DNA of 63,463 nucleotides, filler included, from Sphaeroforma arctica JP610 (taxonomy: Eukaryota), in the NCBI RefSeq assembly GCF_001186125.1. It is 5 parts of 3 records of this genome, joined end to end, with 100 filler letters (N's around TTAATTAATTAA, not from the genome) between each part and the next. Parts side by side here need not be neighbours in the genome. Positions count along the whole stretch, not along the records: positions 17,271 to 40,813 come from NW_014040557.1; 4 more parts are not named here. One strand, written 5' to 3'. This document shows, piece after piece, positions 13,101 through 60,451 of the stretch. How positions within the stretch are numbered: the stretch's first letter is position 1; the number at the start of each line of letters is the position of its first letter. The notes below the pieces were generated by a model that did not search any database, was not told where the DNA came from, and saw only the letters and a program-made list of their open reading frames with translations. The position numbers and the translations under genes were made by a program.

Positions 13101-16100
13101 TCAAATTTCTGTTAACAATTTGAGTAAGCTACATGTATATACGTGCATATGTATATAGATAACCAAATCTCGATTGCGAAAAGGCTAAATGTCAGACACG
13201 AGCAGGTATTCGCTTTAGCGTAAAATAGAGGTATACACCAAAGTAGGCAAGCCCCGACGTACCAGGTTTATATCGTCCTTGGACGGCAGCAGGGTCCCCA
13301 GTTTCCGAAACGAGTCGTTGTGCATATCGCGGCGTTTGCGCTCCTGCTTCTTGTGCTTCATCTTCCGCCAGTTCTCCTTCTCAGCCGGCGTAGCATCGAC
13401 CGGCTCCACATCAGACCCCCCAGGAGACCCCCCCGAGCCGGTCGTGTGCATCGAGTTTCTCCTCACCCGGCCAGAACCTTGCTTCGAGTCGGCATTGTTA
13501 TGCGAATCGCTCACGATACTGTACTTCCGCTCCCGTGTATAGTAAGGCCCGGCCACTAGGCTGCCAGCAGTACCGGAGCTCAGGAGCAGCGAGCCTTTGG
13601 TAGAACTCACCCCCAGATGCGCGTTCGTCCCCACCACGCCCAGGTGCGACTGAGATACGCTCGGCTGTTCATGGCCCTGTCCGCGTACCTGTGCGTTGGA
13701 CAGATGACGTGCCCGTGCACTCGGGGATTGCTCCTTACGTGCTTTGGGTGGTACTGCACTCACATGGGACGCCCTGCTTCTTTGGGCTATCCCCGGTTGA
13801 CTCCGTGCTCGCGACAGACTACTCTCTCGGTCTACGCCTGCGGGCCAGTCGCCGGCCTCTCGGTCACTCCTTGGGTCTCTTGCACTAGCCGTGTTCTGGT
13901 CCGCGATACTCTCCAGATAATCTCCCCCCACGTCTCTACCCCCACTTGTCCGCCCATTTTCCAAATAGGGCGAGTGCCGCAGCTTACGCGCACTATCGGC
14001 CTCTGCTTCGACCTCAAACCTCGACCTGTCTCTGGGGTCTGCCCTAGTCCACTCCGATGGCCTGGTCCGCGAGGGCAAACGGTCCATACCGTCCCTGTCC
14101 GCCTCTCTCCGTCTATCCTCGAGCATGCGAAGATCCCGCTCACTCTCTGCCTGTGTGCGGAAGGCACGTGACTCGTGCATATCCCTCTGCCTTGCGTCGC
14201 CCATTGGATCGAACGCACCTCGACTCATCGCACGCGCTCTCTCGCGCTCGTCTACCAAGCCGTCCTTGCTGTCAGTATACACCTCCCGATAGTCATACGG
14301 ACTCTCGGATATAGCCTTCTTGGGATCCACAGAACCGTCTATGTCTCCACGCTTGTGCATGTAATCGTAACCCCTATCTGTGGGCATTGTGGACCTCTTG
14401 TAGGTTCCCTCTACCATGTACCGTTGGTTCGCCACAAGTGGTCGGTCGTTGAACCATGGCCCATCCTCTCTGGACAAACCGGGTAGAAATTGTCCCAGAT
14501 TCTCACCCGTGCGGTCGAGATAGTCTCTGTACGTTATCTCCCGAAATCCGTCGAGTTCCATGTCTCGTCGCCGGTCCTCTCTTCTCTTCATATCTCTGCC
14601 CGTGCTTGCACCCTTGTGCCATTCTCTGAGGTCTGATTCCTCCTTATCTCTTCCTCTATATCTTTCCCATTCCCTTTCCCATTCCCTTTCCCTTTCCCTT
14701 CCTATTTCCCTTTCTCTTTCCAATTCTCTTGCCCTTTCCAATTCTCGTTCGTATCGATACTCTCGGTTAGACAACCCCCCGCTTGCTTGGTAGTACTTTC
14801 TGTCGTAGTCATCTTCACCTCTGTGACCGCGGTAGATCTCCCGATCCCCTTCACGACCCCGCTCGCGCAACCCACCGGTGACATTCCCTTGTAGACGCTC
14901 AGCGTACGCCCTCTCGGCCGTGTCCCGCCGTTGATGCGGGATAGACTCCAGCGTTCGCTGCGACCGCAGGCTTTGATATTGAGGGCTCTTTTGTCCTGCC
15001 TGTTGCGCCATACTCCGCATAGCCCCAATACCGCCCGCACCTTCATCATTCCAATCCAGGCCGTGCTGATCATCTCCCACACTCCTGGACGGTGCAGATT
15101 TGTGCAAGTAGGCCTCGCCTCTTTCTAGCTGGCGTTGTCCCTGTGCTTCCGCATCTCTCGTCGGCTGTGACTGCATTTGCGGTGATTGTGTCCTCTGTTG
15201 GAGCTGCGCCCGGGAATACATACCTTGGTCTCGTGTATGCATTGCTTGTTCTCGAGTAAGACCCTGAGGCTGCCTTCGCAAATGCGCCTGGGTTTCCAGT
15301 TCTGCTTGGGCTTGTGCTTGTGCCTGTACTTGCGGTAATCGTGGCTGTGACCGTGAGCTGACCATGGGCCTCATCTCATCCAACCGAACCCTCTTCGTCT
15401 CCCTTCCCGCATGCATATCCATACCATGTGTGAGTACGTCTGCACTTCTCGGGCGAGTAAGAGACACGTTGACCCGTTGTTCTCGGTGATATTGTGAGTG
15501 TGGCTGTGCTGCATCATGCTTCGCCTCCCCTCCCTGGATAGTTGGCGTCATACCAGCCCTTGCCGAATACTGTGGGGACCGCGCCATACCGAGATTCTCA
15601 CTCTGGGTAGATGGATTGCGTTGCCATTTCAACGGCACCTCCAAACCCATACCCATACTCGGGCTGACGCTCGCACATTCGTTGGCCCCTCTTCTCAAGC
15701 TGCCATTCGCAGGGCTTGCAACTGTAGGCAACTCCGCATCAGAACCCGCACCCGAGCCATACGGCTTCAAAGTGTCCTGCTGAGACTTCGAGCGGTGTGT
15801 CACAAGTAGCTCGTCGCGCACACTCAGCCGTGGGGAGTACGTGACTGACCGCGCCTTCATACCCTCGCCAAACTGATCCTTCAGAGAGTCCCCCAGACTT
15901 CTGCCCACTTCTCGGTCGGGCCTTTGGTCGAACCGATACACCCTGTCTTGCGGCGCACTGCTGGCCGCTTCCGTATCGTGTTCTCGGAACTTCATGGGCC
16001 CTGAGCCATTCCAAGCCCCCCCATCCGCCCCTCTCTGTGCTCGCGCCTGCTGTGTGCCACTGGGCGATTGCTGGGCACGTATTGAGGGAGAGGCGTCCTG

Positions 16101-17045
16101 TCTTTGGGGCCATTGCCCTCTGTCGGCCCCTTTTATATCCCTAATGCTCCCCACTCGCGGGGACGGCGATCTCTCAGTCGTCGTCGATGCTTCGTGCTCG
16201 TGTATGGCCTCCAGCATGCGCTGCTGTTGCTCTAACTGGTGGGCCCGCTCTTGCTGTTCCTGTATGCGCTGATCGTAAGTCTGGGTCTGTGGCGGCTTCA
16301 CTTGTTTGCCCGATGCTTCCTCCAACAACGTGCCATTCCCACGTGCTACAGCAGCGGCCGGTCGGGGTGCCAAGAGGCGGTTAGGGGCTTGCGATAGAAT
16401 TGGCGACAGGCGCTGTGACATGTACTGCGATGGACTGTGTGCCGCGCTGTCGCCCCGTTCATGCCTCTGTGCTTGTGAAGACGGCTGTGCTTTGAGGGAT
16501 GTCTGCTCTATCCGCGCCTGTTCTCCAGCGAGTGCTTGCATTAGTTGCGACTGACTCTGGTAAGCATGCAAATGCTCCCGCCTATCGTTCCGGGTTTTTA
16601 GAGGCTGCGATGGCGGCAGGGGGGGAACTTGGCGCTCCTCCTTTACATCGCTGTTGTTCTCTTGTTTATAGTCCACATTTCCAGTACCCCCACCCTCACC
16701 AACTCTATATCGGTCCCCAAAGTCAGCACCCATCGCGGATCCGATATCTGATTTCTTGTCCACCTCACCAACACCTTTACTATCACCGTCCCTGGATGCA
16801 TCTCCCCAGCCGGTAGTCACGACTGGTTCAGTTTTCAGCTTAACTTCCGAGCCACCGGAAGGCATACCCGCTCGGCCCTTATCGTTCATATGTACAGCAC
16901 TCACATTCTTTTCCCGGCGATCTTGCGACCCATTGGTCTGCGATCCTGAATCTGTTTTTGTTTGCACAATGTGTGCTTGTGCTTTTTTAATGTGCTGGTC
17001 TCGAAGATCAGAACTAGCCACCGCGCTGCGATTTTTCGTCGACAC
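10142..17045 (-). CDS. Very large (>2030 aa) transcription factor with two bHLH-ZIP domains (Myc/Max/Mad/Mlx-like, group B); 5' exon(s) missing at the contig end
   Basis: Exons 17045-13263, 12858-10681 and 10279-10142, both introns phase 0 and GT-AG. bHLH1: 'KMKHKKQERKRRDMHNDSFRKLGTLLPSKDDINL|PKVQVLTEAITHIHELRRIGSALENV'. bHLH2: 'GHNENERRRRSQMNQAFNELQLRLPVFRAMSKPSK|AHILDEAKKCLVNLKSTRAKLKGQISDLQYSIEDKRRRLEALRSR*'. The GTG at 17045 follows a ...ctgcag acceptor, so it is not the true start. Confidence 0.88.
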
Positions 17046-17170
17046 CTGCAGTTACAGAATGTGATCCAAGATGGGGTAAATAAAAACCGATAGCTAAAAT
17101 CACATAAAAAAACGAAAACTTCAACATCGTTAGAGTTTCTCAGTATATACGTGTATATTTGCATATATAT

Positions 17171-17270
17171 NNNNNNNNNNNNNNNNNNNNNNNNNNNNNN
17201 NNNNNNNNNNNNNNTTAATTAATTAANNNNNNNNNNNNNNNNNNNNNNNNNNNNNNNNNNNNNNNNNNNN
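17171..17270. other. Artificial contig-join spacer (44 N + TTAATTAATTAA + 44 N)
   Basis: The identical 100-bp structure recurs at 40814-40913, 58020-58119 and 60352-60451; the 12-mer gives stops in all six frames. Confidence 0.95.
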
Positions 17271-17873
17271 GGCCGCACAACCAAAGCAATGCGACCAATG
17301 TTTGGACCATACGTTGTCAAAGCCAGACAGGGACAAGGATATGAACTGACACACAAGGATGGTTCACTTCCAGATACTTTCAAAGGTAAACCAGTTAGAG
17401 TGGAACTTTTGCGATTAGTCCATAGAGCCACCGAAAAACCTTTAGAAGATCATATGTGGCAGGATAGTTCCTCGTTCCGTTATATCATTCGACATAGACA
17501 AAATGATTCCACAGGAAATACAGATTACTTGGTTCTCTGGCGGGAAGGTGATCCAACTTGGGAGTCAGCCGAAGCTTTTGACGATCCGAATGATATCGCT
17601 GCATACCACAAAGCCGAGCAAACTCGAAAGAAGAAGAAAGCGGCACAACAACAATAAGTACAACGTTACGTTGATGAATACTAGATGTCCATCATCTACT
17701 TCCGGATCGGAGTTTGTCTCTCCTCGTGAGATCTCACCACGGTGTAGAGGCGAACGACGATTCCACAACTCGAGCTTATAGGCGAGTGTAACTCCAGCGG
17801 ATACCCTAGCTTAAGGGGGGGGGGGTGAAAACATAACAGCGGATACCCTAGATTTTTGGGGGGGGTGAAGATA
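17271..17873 (+). mobile_element. 3' end of a Ty3/gypsy chromovirus: integrase C-terminal GPY/F domain + chromodomain, polypurine tract and probable start of the 3' LTR
   Basis: ORF 17289-17657 has 'FGPYVVK...GYEL' and a chromodomain 'RYIIRHRQ...TDYLVLWREGDPTWESAEAFDDPNDIAAYH'. G-runs followed by TG occur at ~17814-17827 and ~17858-17868, just before the N gap. Confidence 0.85.
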
Positions 17874-18708: not shown

Positions 18709-21033
18709 GTATACACTGAGCTCGACATCGTGATAGTATGTACCATTCATCGAAAGTATGTAACATAGCGTCAAGGATCGTTGTTGCTTTCAGATCGCCC
18801 ACAGAATATACCTTAGCCATATTGAAATAGTCATCTATGATCGAAACAGCATGTGTGTTGGAGTCGATTGATGCTGTAAACGGGCCGATGATGTCAATGT
18901 AGATTAGCTCAAGAGCCTCAGCTGCAGGTTCATGTTGTCTTTCCTTGTTGGTATTCTTCTTCTTCTTCTTGGCTATGGTACATGCTTTCCATCGATCTTC
19001 GGGCTGTCTGATGTATGGCAGATGTTTTGGAATGTAGCTAGTATGCGCTAGTCTGTTGTGCCATGTAATTTTGTTGGCCATCTCCAGTGTTGGTTTGGCT
19101 GTAGCCCCAGATATATCGTCGATGTGAACACAATATATTCTGTGTTTTTCATTTTTGAAGTTAGGCAACAATATATACAACATACTGTTGGTAAACTCAA
19201 ATGAATAGAGTCGAGCCGAGAGCAGGCTGACGCTTAGTAGGGCTGTTTTGAAGGTAGTGTCGATAAGTACCTCTCCCAAATCTCCCAGTTGTGCCATTAG
19301 GATAAATGATGGTTCCATTTGCCACTTCAAGTGCGTACCGGTCATTGACGCACATCTTGTGGATGAGGTAATGCTGATGATACTTGCATGGGAGTACATG
19401 GATGGTAGCGCAACTGCCACAAGCTAGTCAGTATCCACGTTCAGGATCCCTATTTGGTCGATCGTTCACATCCTTATTGTCAACTGTAGGGTCTATAGCC
19501 GAAAACGCAATTCGTCTGTCAGAACGAGGAAAGTCATTGAATTGCGCTGACATTGCTTTGTCCTTTCTACCGTCCCTTGTATGGCGTCGGTTGTCTTGAG
19601 ATCGATAGGTGCTATCTCGGTCTTGAAAGCGCTGGTTGTCATGTGAGTATCTGTCGTTGTTTCCGTAGTTGCGTTGTCTGTTTCTATCTTCTTGATATTC
19701 CGGTCGGTAGTAATCGTCGCGGTTGTCATGATATCGGCGTTGATAGCGGTCGTTGCTGCTGTCTCTATCATTTTGTGTATTACGGCCACGATCAGAGTAG
19801 GGTTTGTTGTACTTATCATTGTTGTTAGATTTTCTGTAACCTCTTGTATCGTTGCGTGGGCCGGTTTTGTCAATGCGACGGTAGTAAGGTTTGCGATTGT
19901 TTCGATCACCGCCCGCAGTCTGCAATTTTCTGGTAACACATGATTTGATTAAGAACTGAAGCTTGCGGCATTGTTCTATGGAATGACCTCTGTTATTACA
20001 GAATGCGCAATTATCTGATGAAATGGCTGAATGTGCCCCGTGAACGATAGTCGATGGGTCATTTTCGTCTGGATCCAATGCTGTGAGATACGAAGTAAGG
20101 TCATCGTACGACATAGCCATCATTGCTGGTGTTTTCAACGTGATCGTCACCGTCTGATTGTCGTCGTGCACAGCTTGACGTAATATAGCGCAGGGACTGT
20201 TATCGGATTTCACACCTCCGGCATTCTTGAATTTCACCAAGGACGTGTTGAGACGACTAATGAGAGTAGCGTACGGCTCGTTCCGTTTCTGCATGATGCG
20301 ATTCAGTTTTGCTTCCAAGTATTGGATATCATCTTCAGTCAGAGCTTCAAACTCTTGTTGCAGTGCAGCAAATGCATCCCAAGGGGACTCGATGAATTGG
20401 CTGATTTCCGTTTGCAGTAGCGGAGACAGGGTACGGTTGATAATCCGATATGCTTCAGCAACTTGCTTACAAGTCCAACGGCTGCCTCGAGAAGCTGTCG
20501 GGTTGGTCAGGATATCAGAGATTCCTTCGCAGTTCACAGATAGGATGGTTTGAGTTTTCCAGGGAAGCCAGTCGACCTTCGACTCGAGAATGGTGGTGGT
20601 TTTGATATCCTTAGAGTTGACAGTAGGCATTTTGGTAGCGTAAGAGCAGAGTGACCTGATAAGTTGTTAGAGTGTAAGATGGTAGTATTTGAATAAAGCG
20701 TAATTGTATATCTTTATTTACAACCTCACCTTTGGTTTTATATTCAAGGTGTTTGTGCTAGTGTTCAACCGCTTGGGTTGGCCAGGGTGATAACTCATAT
20801 GGTCAGTATGAGAAACCTTTTGCAGAACACTTTAACACTTAGATATTGTTCTATAGCATAATCTCTGCTGCTCGCTTTTACGCCGATCAATTCATGCTGC
20901 TTGGCTTTCAGAGCAATTCTCTCCTAGGTATCGGCTTTCGGAGCAATGCTCTCATAGGAGCAAATGTATTAATAATATGATGTGTTCAATAATTTGAGCC
21001 GCTTTTCGGAGTGACGCAACTCTTGTGATTTCA
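18709..21033 (-). mobile_element. Ty1/copia LTR retrotransposon (5' LTR, gag, degenerate protease, GAG-pre-integrase, integrase N-part); the rest is lost in the gap
   Basis: Gag ORF 20630-19428 has copia-type 'DWLPWK...' and zinc knuckle CAFCNNRGHSIEQC. The protease region is broken by a stop and frameshift ('GY*LACGSCATIH...LEVANGT'). It is followed by 'TWHNRLAH...CTIAK' and 'LELIYIDIIGPF...SIIDDYFN'. The order PR-IN is copia-type. Confidence 0.9.
20657..21033 (-). repeat. Probable 5' LTR of the copia element
   Basis: On the minus strand it runs TGA...TCA, contains TATAAAA (~20735-20741) and AATAAA (~20713-20718), and ends ~27 nt before the gag ATG. The far boundary abuts unrelated coding sequence. 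No second LTR is visible to confirm it. Confidence 0.6.
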
Positions 21034-21041
21034 TTCAAGAA

Positions 21042-23230
21042 AAAGAGTTTTCTTGCTATTGAAACTTGCTTGAGATCTGTAGTCTCTCACCGTGGGCTGC
21101 CATCCCGCGTGTCTTAGCCAAGGTGATTGCAGACGAGGCGGACATAACCCTAATGTGCCCATACCTCGCTAATGCTCCTTGGTTCCAACCAATGCTGTCG
21201 TTATTGTCGCGGGAGCCTATCATCATTCCCCCAGAGAAAGGTGTCTTTTTCCAATATGGCCATGAAGAAATGCCACCCCATCGATGGGGCCCAACGTTGC
21301 TGTGCCGACTCTCCGTCAAGGGCGCAAAATTCCAGGTTCCTAGGGATTTCTGGCGTCAGTGTGACACGTTTGTCCCTGGTGGTGTGGCTGGCGGGGCGGC
21401 TCGTTCCGTTTTACGAACCAGCCCACGTACCATGGCTCCTCAGCCTACCCCGGTAGAGCTAACGTCGCTGGAGCGGGAGGCTGCCCAAGCTACAGAACCC
21501 AAGCGTCGAATGCCTGAGCGGCGTGCTCGTCGAGGCCGTGTTCGGCAGGAACAGGTCCTCGTAGCTGAGCAACGTGAAGTGCCCAAGTCCAAGCAAGAAG
21601 TGGAAGTAGCGGTCAAACGCGCCATGGAAGGCCCCTCTCCGTATAGGATTCCCTGGTTTGTCTTGTCGTGGCCGGAAGTCCACAATGTCATTGCGGCTAC
21701 GCACAAGGTGTATATGCATGCTGGCACCGATAAGCTGGTTGCTAAGCTCTACACCCTCTATGGCTGGAACGGACTACGATCCCTGGTTAGGGTGGTCAAG
21801 CGCTCGTGTCACGCTTGCCAGCTTCGCGCTCCGCACGTCACGCAAGAGCTCGGTCTCCTCCAGCAGCCCAAGCGTGCTCGGGGGTTATTTGACCATGTTT
21901 TCATGGATTTTGCGCAGTTGCCGAAGACCTCTGCCGGTTATACGCATCTTCTCTTAGTCGGGGACAGAGCGACGTCTATGGTACTCGGGAAACCGTCGCG
22001 GTCGAAGAGTGCTCGTAAAGCCATTAAGTTCCTCAGTGAAGTGGTGCACCCCTGGGGTCAACCCAAGCTGTACACATGCGATAAAGACTCGGTGTTCATG
22101 GCCAAGGAATTTAGTGACTTTGCCAGCCAGTCCAGTGGCGAGGTTCATGATGTCACTACGGACCATCACCAGGCCAATGGCGCAGCTGAGGCGATGGTCA
22201 AGGTTGCCCAGGATTGGATCCTCAAGTCTATGACAGCTAAGGATGAGGGTGATTGGGTTCCCTGGTGCTATCGTTTTCGGAACTGTTACAACGCAGCAAC
22301 CACAGCGACGCATGGGTTTGCCCCTTACACCATGGCTACGAACCGGGTGTATGACGGTGAACGGGAGTTCAAGCTTGAGGCTGACGTGCGTCGCCTCCTT
22401 GCCACTGAAAAATCGGCTTGTGCCTTAATTCGTGACGACGCAGCTTACCAGCGTACACAACGGGCAAAGGAAGCACAAAGGACGAGGGCGAATAAGATTC
22501 GGAAGAAGGCTCCTAAACTCGCTCCTGGCTCTCTCGTTAAGTTCGAGGCTTCCGCGGATCGACCGAAGTCCGAGGACCGGTGAAAGGGTCCGGCCACTGT
22601 CCGGTCACAGGATGGCCCGGTGATATACACCATTGCTTTCCGCGGCAAGGAGGTGCGTCGCCATAGCACGCAACTCCGTCCGTACATCTCACCTATCTCT
22701 CCCATCATTGGGCAAGAGGTGGACTTAGTCTTCTCAGGAGCTTACGAGCAGTGGCTCTTTATGCATTCTCCTTTTAAGAAGGCGCCGATTGAGGAGCGCA
22801 GAGCGGTTTTGCACCACCTTAACCGCACTGATAAGGGTTTGGAGTTGAAGAGCCTCACCAATTCGGCTTTTGGTCTTATGCAGAAAGTGTATACCCGTCA
22901 AGACAAGACGGTCAAGTACCATTTGTCTCGGGCGGCCCGTGCATACTTGCACAAGGAGTGGAAAGCGCTTTCCCCTGGAACTCTTCAGTCGCGCATATCC
23001 CTTGTTGGGTCTGCGCTGGCGTTTGCCCAGGTCCCCTTATTCCGAGCGAAGAAGGTCAAGGAATGGACGGACGCGGCAAACAATGGGGCGCATACACCAG
23101 TATTGGGTGCGACCTCTACCGGTCGGCCGCTGCAGATGCACAGCGTGCCACTGCCAGCCGGCCTGCTGAAAGCTTGGACGTTATCGCCGTCGGCATAATG
23201 GTGTTAGCGTGGTGAGCGGTGTGAGGAAAG
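21042..23230 (+). mobile_element. Chimeric retroelement fragment: DIRS-type Dam-like methyltransferase domain - gypsy-type DDE integrase - SH3 - tyrosine recombinase N-terminal part
   Basis: One frame runs 21042-23198, interrupted only by TGA at expected Trp positions (21060, 22581). MT-like: 'EFSCY*NLLEICSLSPWAAIPRVLAKVIADEADITLMCPYLANAPWFQPMLSLL'. H-x4-H-x29-C-x2-C at 21702-21819. Catalytic D(21906)-D(22080)-x35-E(22188). SH3-like '*KGPATV...IYTI...RHSTQLRPY'. Then 'LSPGTLQSRISLVGSAL' and, after frameshifts, 'VGIMVLAW/VSGVRK' (YR box I-like). Confidence 0.75.
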
Positions 23231-23309
23231 TTAGGTCTAGCATGACCGTGGCCTGCGGCAACGCTCAAGAGGGACATACTATCATTATATATATTATATA
23301 CATATGTAC

Positions 23310-23368
<59 letters not shown>

Positions 23369-23732
23369 NNNNNNNNNNNNNNNNNNNNNNNNNNNNNNNN
23401 NNNNNNNNNNNNNNNNNNNNNNNNNNNNNNNNNNNNNNNNNNNNNNNNNNNNNNNNNNNNNNNNNNNNNNNNNNNNNNNNNNNNNNNNNNNNNNNNNNNN
23501 NNNNNNNNNNNNNNNNNNNNNNNNNNNNNNNNNNNNNNNNNNNNNNNNNNNNNNNNNNNNNNNNNNNNNNNNNNNNNNNNNNNNNNNNNNNNNNNNNNNN
23601 NNNNNNNNNNNNNNNNNNNNNAAAACAATAATAATAAACAACATTAACCTCCCTACTAACAAATTTATTACGTCAAAATTTGATATAGCCGTAAGGCTTC
23701 TTTAATTTAAATTTAAACAAATTTTGCACGAT

Positions 23733-26039: not shown

Positions 26040-27480
26040 CTTGCAAGCCGGTGGGGCCTAAGCTACAAGCATTGGAGGTTCTGAAGGAGCCCGAGGCTGC
26101 GCTGTACGATCCTGGGGGTCCGATTGGTTATGCACAGATGCCACGATCGATACTTGTGAGGCGATGATCTCGACTGATCGGCGGTGTTGGTGCTAGCTGG
26201 GGGAAGTCGGCTAAGGCGGACAGGGGTACTGATGGGCCTTTATCAGTCACCTGGCTACTACGTTGTATTAAGTCATAATTGGTCTCGCCAGATAGCAGGG
26301 CCAGCCGCGGTACTTGAGGGTGGGATGAGATCGTAGGCAATCCGAATCCAGCTCGGTAATCGTTGCACTGGTCAATGGCGACCTGTTCTGCATTCCACTA
26401 TTGTGTGCCAGAAGTGTGGGAGTAACTGTACAGACACCGGCACCAATCACCCTATTGCTGGCGTCCGGTGTGGCTACCAGGAGTCTGTGTGGTAGTGGTT
26501 GGTAGAGGCGTATACAGAGAGCTATAGCCGACAGGAGGTAAGTGTGTGCTATATCGTGAGTCGTGTCTCATTTAAATATAACACCCTCATGCGTGAGGTC
26601 GGAGAGGACCGCTGCCTGTACTGCATATCCTGGTATATAGTTAGCCCACCAGGACATCACAGCGATTAAGCTAATATACAAGTTCCTGTCAACGATTCGT
26701 TGGCGCTGGTCGGTCGAACAGGGCTTCAGCTCGTTTAAACATGATGGCCGATGTGTTACGAATGTTCTCTCTTCAAAGAAGCTGATGATACAATCCATGA
26801 GCATAGCCCATTAGCATTTGTATATCCTTTTTGATGCAGTTAAGTGCGACCCGAAATATATCGTTCTAGTGAACGTTAAGGGCTTTGAGGTTTGTTTGTG
26901 CTGCCTTACAGCGAAAGGTCGCTAAGTTGCCGTCATCAAGGTACGCTTTGAATGCCTTTTTTCAGTCGAAAAGTTGTGTCCATATAATGTTGCATGTCGT
27001 AGCAATCATTCTCCACCCCTTTGATAAGGCACCTGTGTTGATGAAAGCGACTATCCGCCGTTGTAAACGTAAGACAGCCTCGCGAATCAGGGTGCAATAA
27101 GAGCTGATGATATGATGTCGCTAGGTCCGCCGCCAACTGTATGATCGCGTTGCGGGAGTTTTCGGCCATGTCTGCTTCAATTGAAAGCTGGTATGGGAAA
27201 TTATGTAGCCCAACGGTTAATCGAGACGTACCTGTTGTTCATTCGGTAGTGGTCAGGGCATGTTGGTGTAATCTTGTAATCCTTTCGGACGATCCTCACT
27301 GAGCTCATCCACTGACTGAAACTACTACCCTCTTCCGCTTTACCATCCCTATAGTTCTGCTCCATATTCACCGTCTCAACGGCTTAGAGTACTGGGTCCC
27401 GGGTAAATGTTCCTGTGCCTGGGAAATAGGGGATCTAACCGGGCACTTCACCCGTGAGAGGTCCAGCTGGAACTTCGGGG
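26040..27480 (-). pseudogene. Decayed Ty3/gypsy pol fragment (RT + connection + RNase H)
   Basis: Frameshifted pieces: 'SQWMSSVRIVRK...YRMNNRYVSIN', 'DLATSYHQLLLHPDSRGCLTFTT', 'YLDDGNL', 'SWWANYIPGYAVQAAVLSDLTHEGVIFK*', and RNase H 'LVATPDASNRVIGAGV'. Confidence 0.85.
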
Positions 27481-50700: not shown

Positions 50701-52282
50701 CGCTGTCGGCACAGTTAACACTTCTTGATGGGGATGCAGGTGCTCTCGAATCGCATGATTGGATCTGCGACTCCGCCAATAGCGTACTTTGGCGAGGCAC
50801 TTGCTCTCCAGGACTTGATTGGGACACTGGAGCATATGCATCCAATCCATTGAGATGAGGTGCTTGTTCACTGATGATGCAGTCGGTGTCTGAAGTTCGG
50901 GATGCTGATGGTTGCGATTCGCGGGAGTTGATCTGTGACTCCGCCAGGAATGTGCTTAACACAGGCGTTCGCTCGCCATGCTCGTTTGCTTGGGGCACTG
51001 GCGCTTGTGCTTCTCCGTTTGCGTGTGATAAAGGGTTGCCGATATTGCAGTCGAGGGCCGCTGTTTGGGCTGCTGGTGCTTCTGAGTGGCATGATTGGCT
51101 CTGTGAATCTGCCAATGGTGCACTAGACGGAGATTCTTGCTTGCCAGAGTCGTTGGTTTGGGCAGCGGGCGCTTGTAGATTTAATTCGTTTACGCCACGT
51201 GTTTGCTCGCTGACGATGCTTGTCGCTTCCATTTCCGCACTATTCGTTAAATATGCTTGCTCATTGCCTTTGTACTTCGTCCAAAGTGAGAACTTTTCTT
51301 TCTGCTGAGCCACATACTCCCGGTCCAAGGTCTAGAAACAAACATATAAACAACTAACAGTGAGCAATTGGGACGGAACAGAATCCATCCAAAAATAGTA
51401 TGCTATATCACTGGCCACTGACCCAACTATATAGACTGAACTAACAATATACTTACCTTGTAGATCTCAGTAATCAACAGTTTGAATCGCCGCCTATGAA
51501 CCTCATCCTCAAAATCCCACAAGTGTCCATCGGTGATTCCTCTCTCTAGAACTTGCTCCACCAGCGGCAGAATCTTAGAGGTGAAGAATCGTGCAGCTTT
51601 CGCTCCTCCATGCCCATCTGCCAATGCCATTACAACGTATTGATGCAGAGGGTTGTGGTGAACCAGCACCTTGTCCTCGGCTTCCTTCTTCCACACCTGC
51701 GTTGATGTATAAGTACATACAAAACAGCTCAATGTATGCACATACCGGTGTAGCGGATATAGTATAGACGAGCAGCACAAAACACCAAAATTATATCCAT
51801 AATAGTTCTGCAAAGATCCATAAAAGTCGTACATCGCACACCATCGTCCTAGCAAAGCATACCTTCATTCTCGACTTTCGGTTTCCAGTGAACTCGTAGC
51901 CTTGCTGGATCGCATTACCCCACAGGAACGGCACAGGGAGTGTGTTCCAAACCACGCGCTGGGGCACATCATGCTTCTCAGGCATCTGCACTTGCACCCG
52001 ATCCCCCCGTTTATCTCGCGTGGTTTCCGCTGTGTGTTTCTTCACCACTAGTCGCGCCGTGCAGGTCGAAGATTTTCGTGCCTGCTTCGATTGCTGCGAA
52101 GTTTTCGAGCTCGGCGGCTGAGGAGCCGTACATGTGATTCGTTTCATAGAGTTGTTGGGTCGCTTTCCTTGATTAAACTTATTCTTCTGTATTTGAAGTG
52201 CCACTTTGCTTGGAATTGCTTTGGAATGCTGCGATGGCTTCGATCGCTCTGGCTGCTTCGGCTTATTCACGACGCGCTGCAT
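47718..52282 (-). CDS. PP2C/PPM-family Ser/Thr phosphatase with a very large low-complexity insert in the catalytic domain
   Basis: Exons 52282-51863, 51696-51457, 51331-48909, 48736-48645, 48433-48310, probable 48228-48214, and 48117-47718, with consistent phases. Motifs: 'EAEDK', 'LADGHGG', 'DDGCT', 'CNVGDSR', 'LNLGGTMGD...PDV', 'MMSDGL', 'DDCAV'. Confidence 0.92.
50555..51175 (-). repeat. Four ~56-aa (~170-bp) coding tandem repeats in the PP2C insert
   Basis: Recurring 'AP..Q....GEQ....S..LA[DE]SQ.QSC.S.APAS' in ORF 48857..51328. Confidence 0.85.
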
Positions 52283-57463: not shown

Positions 57464-58398
57464 CCGACTATGAGCTATGCCTGATAGACACTGCGTGCAA
57501 ACAGCATGGATGTGGATCGAAGCGGCGTGATAAGTACGTGTGCACATGCTTGTATCGCACTATACATATATTTGCACATACACAACAATTTACACGTACA
57601 CATATATTCACGTGTACATGACATAGTTAGCGACGATATGGATGTGGTGTTCAAGTGAGCCTATGGATCCGTGCACAAGTGAACGACGTGCGCAACATAA
57701 AAAAGCCAACCATGTCTTGTGGATTCAATGGCATCTAGTACATATGTACGGAATCCATATAAAAATATAAACACACATATGCGTTGGTGTGTATACCTAC
57801 TAAAATATCTCCAAAATGGTAGGTACATCCACTCGAAAATGAGCATCAATTCGCTTTCATATAATACCAGCACAGCAATATATATACATCGTTCTATATA
57901 CCATTATAGATATATTCTTTCAATTTGAATGTTTACTATTAACATAATCGTCTGCACACACACAGAGACAGATATATATATATATATATATATATACTTA
58001 TATAATAATACACACACACNNNNNNNNNNNNNNNNNNNNNNNNNNNNNNNNNNNNNNNNNNNNTTAATTAATTAANNNNNNNNNNNNNNNNNNNNNNNNN
58101 NNNNNNNNNNNNNNNNNNNCGTAGCCATGGATGTGTGTGTCCATGTGTGTGCATTGATGTAGATAAACAGATACACATACACACGTGAGCATATTCGTTG
58201 CTTAGTTCCAACGTCGCCGGGGTATAAAGCAGTAGGACACATCCCACTCCTTCACCTCTGTGGCATGAATGGCATCGAGGAGTGAAAGTTCTACCCTTTA
58301 AACCTTTTAATAGGCACAAAACAAACATATACTCGTATATATATATATATATATATATATGTATCCTATGCACACCTATACCATATACACCCACCCAC

Positions 58399-60020: not shown

Positions 60021-60451
60021 ATTACTTCCTGTGCGAGCCACTGGAACGGCAAAGTCACCTGAGGGATTTGATAATGATACAAGAGAAACACATGAGTGAA
60101 TGTACACATATGAACTACATAGATATTATATACATATGATTTGTGTAAGAGGTTAAATCCCTGACTGGATGGAGATGAAGGTGTACCTTCCAGAAGTGGA
60201 AGGCAGTATATATATATATATGTGTGTGTGTGTTAAGTGTGTATGTATATGTATATATCTATCTCAATATATCTATCTGACTATCTATCTATCTAGCTAT
60301 ATATATATAAATATATACATGTACATGTACATATACATATGCATATACATTNNNNNNNNNNNNNNNNNNNNNNNNNNNNNNNNNNNNNNNNNNNNTTAAT
60401 TAATTAANNNNNNNNNNNNNNNNNNNNNNNNNNNNNNNNNNNNNNNNNNNN

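Follow-up and report, generated by a model that had tools for sequence, protein, structure and literature searches.

LTR (long terminal repeat) and DIRS retrotransposons are told apart by their integration enzyme, and DIRS elements carry a methyltransferase (MT) and a tyrosine recombinase (YR) without a DDE integrase, as described in the text of PMC3783388. Can modules of both kinds be joined in one element? The question is raised by positions 21042 to 23230 of a 63,463-nucleotide stretch of the Sphaeroforma arctica JP610 genome (hereafter the window), where a first-pass annotation had placed a DIRS-like element that captured a Gypsy integrase between MT and YR. Our analysis, followed below step by step, favors, at somewhat better than even chance, a multi-copy Ty3/Gypsy-type DAM-LTR, present here as a truncated copy, in which a Dam-like MT, a DDE integrase and the predicted DNA-binding half of a YR follow each other, probably without a working catalytic half. 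The domain order lies in one frame and is also found in diverged copies, the catalytic residues of the integrase are intact, and the element likely bridges the two retrotransposon classes. The copy itself is dead, because a repeat cuts the MT and a stop codon sits in the integrase tail.

Two stop-to-stop frames, 21063-22583 (506 amino acids) and 22584-23198 (204 amino acids), are in phase and separated by a single TGA. The first annotation had proposed one frame over 21042-23198 with two TGA codons at expected Trp positions; the phase was confirmed, but the seamless frame of the element begins only at 21090 and the first TGA belongs to a neighboring repeat. The second one, at 22581-22583, coincides with a Trp in five relatives (KWKGP, LWHGP, EWLGP) and is therefore a stop in this copy. 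The integrase was complete, as had been claimed. The H2C2 zinc finger (21702..21818, + strand) has the H-x4-H-x29-C-x2-C motif and matches Pfam Integrase_H2C2 (E 1.4e-7), and the DDE core (21900..22360, +), covered by representative matches, retains D 21906, D 22080 and E 22188, with 35 residues separating the second D from the E (Pfam rve, E 0.0023, below the curated cut-off of that family). The GPY/F-SH3-like tail (22520..22700, +) gave no direct Pfam match; it aligns through the SH3_Tf2-1 region of P0030 and includes the position at which relatives have the Trp. The Gypsy-type integrase set (H2C2, D-D35-E, GPY/F-SH3) is thus present. Family fragments apart, the best of 150 listed representative matches cover the integrase; when 30 of the 150 were scanned with Pfam, 25 had H2C2 and rve, the other five were family fragments without a match, and none of the 30 had a Phage_integrase domain. 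No Pfam match to a chromodomain was obtained in 22584-23195 in a scan that detected Chromo elsewhere in the window.

Ahead of the integrase, the C-terminal half of a Dam-like adenine MT, which opens with the PW of the NPPW motif, could be recognized at 21090..21335 (+). This segment has no direct Pfam match, yet it aligns with DIRS and DAM-LTR MTs, and a four-row family profile compared with three MT domains of Gypsy polyproteins gave an hhalign probability of 98.6 (E 1.4e-15); Pfam matched Dam in two of these three polyproteins. The MT that had been called is therefore real from 21090 onwards, while the 'FSCY*N' peptide previously assigned to it lies in an abundant repeat (20838..21089, no strand assigned) defined by its depth and a loose end at 21089. 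Alignments with six of seven MT homologues start at exactly 21090, that is, at the PW following the catalytic NP, and contigs of the more abundant repeat stop at 21089, on CA. For these reasons we consider that the element was cut inside the MT, so that this copy lacks the catalytic N-P of NPPW and retains no more than the C-terminal half. In a tree of 12 MT rows the three Sphaeroforma MTs cluster (92/94), with no deeper resolution and no separation of DIRS from DAM-LTR. The MT search returned no longer family member, and in metagenome contigs it found seven unrelated loci, five DIRS-like and two near-identical ones of Dam-bearing Gypsy type. MT and integrase are connected by an Arg/Glu-rich linker (21336..21690, +; P0003 89%, P0005 77%, P0008 38%) that is common to close copies and shorter in one distant copy. 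As a separate observation, the Gypsy polyproteins P0030, P0137 and L034 (2-2263), from environmental assemblies, have a Dam-like domain in three positions, namely at the gag-protease junction, at the RNase H-integrase junction and downstream of the integrase SH3, which is consistent with repeated captures.

The segment after the integrase is a helical domain (22737..23042, +) present, as had been noted, in this copy and common to its relatives. It is predicted to have the core-binding fold of tyrosine recombinases, a four-helix SAM-like arrangement as in the N-domains of Cre and Xer. The same fold was ranked first by two methods with different inputs, Atlas (0.95) and an AF2 model (pLDDT 65) compared by VIA-align (top ten), and a comparison with a YR profile by hhalign gave a weak match in the same register (E 0.005). 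AF2 run on the single sequence of 22584-23195 reached a pLDDT of 35. The sequence of the tail has no match in Pfam or among PDB sequences, only unrelated weak rows in PHROGs and NCBIfam, one match of E 4 against plasmids by tblastn, and none by Foldseek against the pdb and viral sets. Hidden Markov models (HMMs) of YRs, built from four DIRS or 15 mixed sequences, matched nothing in the six frames of the window or in the stored proteins.

The junctions between these domains recur elsewhere. The nearest protein relatives, 77-89% identical, are S. arctica gene models, and the database proteins of the family (n=14) are fragments throughout. Seven of them run from the SH3 region into the beginning of the tail (27-81% identity), and two consecutive locus-tag pairs present the MT end followed by the integrase tail and helical tail. 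Contigs matching this copy were recovered from four runs of four studies, covering 21798-23272 (X1, X10) or 21872-23272 (X15), or as two overlapping contigs (X8); among the contigs listed, no near-identical one crosses 21090-21798. In diverged contigs, at around 80% identity, the MT end is collinear with the integrase core (290 bases skipped, 291 between), and core, SH3 and tail are collinear as judged from equal depth in the joint table. The proposal of a fusion, rather than random nesting, is thus borne out: both diverged contigs and seven proteins keep the junctions. Scans with the tail in viral and metagenome contigs, and with MT and integrase in viral contigs, yielded no family loci. The gene model of P0001 leaves the family sequence after the start of the tail. 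We take its residues 159-484 (the C-terminal 326) to be gag-like, with no gag match in Pfam or the stored proteins; they may represent gag from a copy lying in tandem, and so offer a lead to the 5' half of the family.

A chromodomain-less, Ty3/Gypsy-like DAM-LTR lineage of ichthyosporeans, present in S. arctica, is described in the text of a preprint (bioRxiv 10.64898/2026.05.21.726589), which also reports more 6mA and expression of these elements in this organism, no activity in E. coli, and long-read data for S. arctica, infers from trees a transfer of Dam from DIRS to LTR elements, and proposes that Dam marks new copies with 6mA. The element analyzed here shares with this lineage the Dam-like MT, the Gypsy-type integrase, the lack of a chromodomain and the host, and it is likely a DAM-LTR itself. 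The preprint text calls the organization conventional and does not mention a YR-derived domain, although its figures and supplements may list such an architecture. With DIRS elements (L029, L030, L031, L035) it shares the Dam-like MT and a downstream, here predicted, YR core-binding domain; in the parts of the literature covered, DIRS elements are without a DDE integrase and encode a complete catalytic YR in a separate and often overlapping open reading frame (ORF), whereas here the predicted core-binding domain is fused in frame to the integrase. We do not class the element as DIRS because of its complete DDE integrase. For a DIRS backbone capturing a Gypsy integrase, no RT (reverse transcriptase), RNase H or termini of the element were seen, and the lineage described in the preprint makes a Gypsy backbone likelier. 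Chromoviruses and Dam-bearing Gypsy elements (P0137, P0082, P0030, L034) also combine an H2C2-DDE-SH3 integrase with an accessory domain at its C-terminus, and have Dam within the polyprotein, but at the C-terminus they carry a chromodomain or Dam and not a YR core-binding domain. According to the text of PMC3537659, ALOG is the N-terminal domain of a DIRS YR freed from its catalytic half and used as a DNA-binding module; it has been domesticated as a plant factor and contains a zinc-ribbon insert, while the domain discussed here is still carried by a mobile element, as an extension of an integrase. The combination had been presented as undescribed, and this was half right: MT beside a DDE integrase is already known from the preprint, and the new part is likely the YR-derived tail on a DAM-LTR family. 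No retrotransposon with an integrase and a YR was found in searches of PMC and bioRxiv, a scope that leaves subscription journals, Repbase and the figures and supplements of the preprint outside; the part of PMC6431247 covered held nothing relevant.

If the favored explanation holds, and by analogy with established LTR-element biology, an upstream RT would make cDNA and the DDE integrase would insert it. The tail may derive from a DIRS element, acquired together with the MT or later, and may bind DNA like the N-domains of Cre and Xer and steer or stabilize the integration complex; such an extra module for DNA binding or targeting would take the position that the chromodomain occupies in chromoviruses. 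What lies past the tail would be a decayed or lost catalytic domain, and the Dam domain may label new copies with 6mA, following the proposal of the preprint. The order MT-integrase-YR-like keeps that of DIRS around a Gypsy integrase; either a DIRS element may have gained the integrase or a Gypsy element both flanks. A family whose Gypsy integrase is flanked on either side by DIRS-type modules would reveal how Dam passed from DIRS to LTR elements, and suggest that more than the Dam domain was transferred. Even without catalysis, a recombinase core-binding domain on an integrase would represent a new type of accessory module for this enzyme, and a candidate for targeting.

Whether the family retains a complete YR is the point on which the main alternative turns. 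Intact members, on a DIRS or a Gypsy backbone, might combine the DDE integrase with a full catalytic YR that is read by means of a frameshift, splicing or an overlapping frame, or that is simply damaged in the available copies; this we regard as possible but doubtful. The predicted fold of the tail and the DIRS order of MT and YR around the integrase (as in the text of PMC3783388) would agree with it. So would a candidate vestige of the YR catalytic box I (23141..23226, +), a hydrophobic run followed by SGVR in two other frames, whose Arg lies 75 codons past the last core-binding helix Ser, a spacing of 70-83 in 15/15 real YRs and therefore suggestive. In addition, the -1 frame is open over 22835-23215, both differences between the window and P0002 past 23160 (L to P, A to G) would be silent in it, and other copies share DNA beyond the stop, with small indels at 23117-23135 and 23225. 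On the other hand, two frame changes would be needed within 100 bases when the preceding 2 kb of the copy have none, the tail has no canonical slippery site, and this GC-rich stretch has many other frames exceeding 100 codons. The linker after the tail (23043..23198, +) runs to a stop that the window, P0002 and the ~50%-identical P0152 share in the same frame and at the matching place, after a common GRP...G-x-x-[KR]-A stretch; since the three stop alike, the frame end characterizes the family and is no damage specific to this copy. When longer proteins were searched with the tail profile, in itself a weak test, P0023 and P0152 were the only ones retrieved, and both lack a catalytic domain. 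The box-I HMM gave the candidate -1.0 bits, within the range of 44 control stretches (top 4.0), though this model is weak on DIRS boxes, as real ones scored 15.8, 7.0, 1.9 and 1.7 bits when four were left out in turn. Of the YR proposed in the first-pass annotation, a predicted core-binding segment stands, the catalytic box is a candidate, and a decayed or absent catalytic domain after the tail is the simpler reading. Purine runs after the stop reach eight bases at most, and both element ends are lost, to the repeat at 21089 and to a TA tract and gap from 23286. As a test for selection on the -1 frame, codon positions in the tail, compared with P0002 alone, gave 15 first-position and 20 second-position changes, compatible with neutral drift, and were not used. 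In the strongest form of this alternative, which we hold to be rather improbable, the DDE integrase would sit inside a DIRS-type module, with the MT before it and the YR after it, and a single coding unit would supply two functional integration systems. Such a family would be a living DIRS/LTR intermediate, able to use DDE chemistry to insert linear cDNA or tyrosine recombination to insert circular cDNA.

It is unlikely that this is an ordinary ichthyosporean DAM-LTR whose integrase is extended by unrelated helices, their likeness to YRs reflecting a common helical arrangement, as the agreement of two methods on one fold and the in-register profile match speak against it. Very unlikely is a DNA element without RT, resembling Ginger, Polinton or adintovirus, that combines a Gypsy-type integrase with Dam and a piece of YR. 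Its appeal comes from the lack of an RT adjoining the element in the window or in the 14 family proteins, from the adintovirus DAMs that the preprint text reports in an ichthyosporean, and from MarCry, a Crypton with a second, DDE gene (PMC13465315). The text on MarCry likewise describes a YR and a DDE enzyme in one element, but this is a DNA transposon with the DDE transposase as second gene, without an MT or a fusion to a retroviral-type integrase. The MT of our element aligns with those of DIRS- and LTR-type retrotransposons, no capsid, polymerase B or ATPase gene was found among 19 ORFs scanned nearby, and the RT is missing because the insertion removed the 5' part. Least probable of all is a one-off nested chimera or misassembly, which the gap-rich window with its many nested elements and the 21090-21798 interval, crossed by no near-identical contig among those listed, could have suggested; independent contigs running from integrase to tail, and the recurrence of the junctions, largely refute it.

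The eukaryotic scaffold around the element is rich in gaps and contains (TA)n tracts as well as nested elements. The abundant repeat at its 5' side is possibly more of the LTR of a copia-like element (18709-20837, -), which consists of an LTR-like stretch (20665..20837, -; ends inverted-complementary at 10/11 bases, loose ends at 20834), part of it at very high depth in 4/4 runs, a weakly gag-like ORF of 412 amino acids (19428-20666, -; Retrotran_gag_2, E 0.053) and a degenerate frame, interrupted by an 835-N gap. At the other side, a (TA)n tract and a 253-N assembly gap (23286..23621, no strand assigned) close the readable copy. Other retroelement remains in the window are a chromodomain-bearing Gypsy integrase end (17271-17873, +; Chromo E 0.0004), followed by a G-rich polypurine tract and a TGAAAA start, where a stretch of ~35 bases ending in the tract occurs in two successive copies before a gap; a degenerate Gypsy RNase H fragment (26439-26672, -; tblastn with P0025, E 1e-4); and an RT element with in-frame stops (40927-43824, +; RVT_1 E 2e-5) that we read as non-LTR, LINE-like. 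Two low-complexity exon-like ORFs (1278 and 827 amino acids; 10645-17051, -), each ending in the first part of a bHLH domain (Pfam HLH), are likely one large gene with two bHLH domains. An 824-amino acid low-complexity ORF (48857-51331, -) has no Pfam match; the motif at its end we presume, without Pfam support, to be PP2C-like. At 17171-17270, 40814-40913, 58020-58119 and 60352-60451, pairs of 44-N gaps flank a 12-base spacer (TTAATTAATTAA at the first site), blocks that look like a scaffolding linker and not genomic DNA. Finally, a 32-base unit is repeated in tandem at 39086-40116, in ~32 copies that are 73-84% alike.
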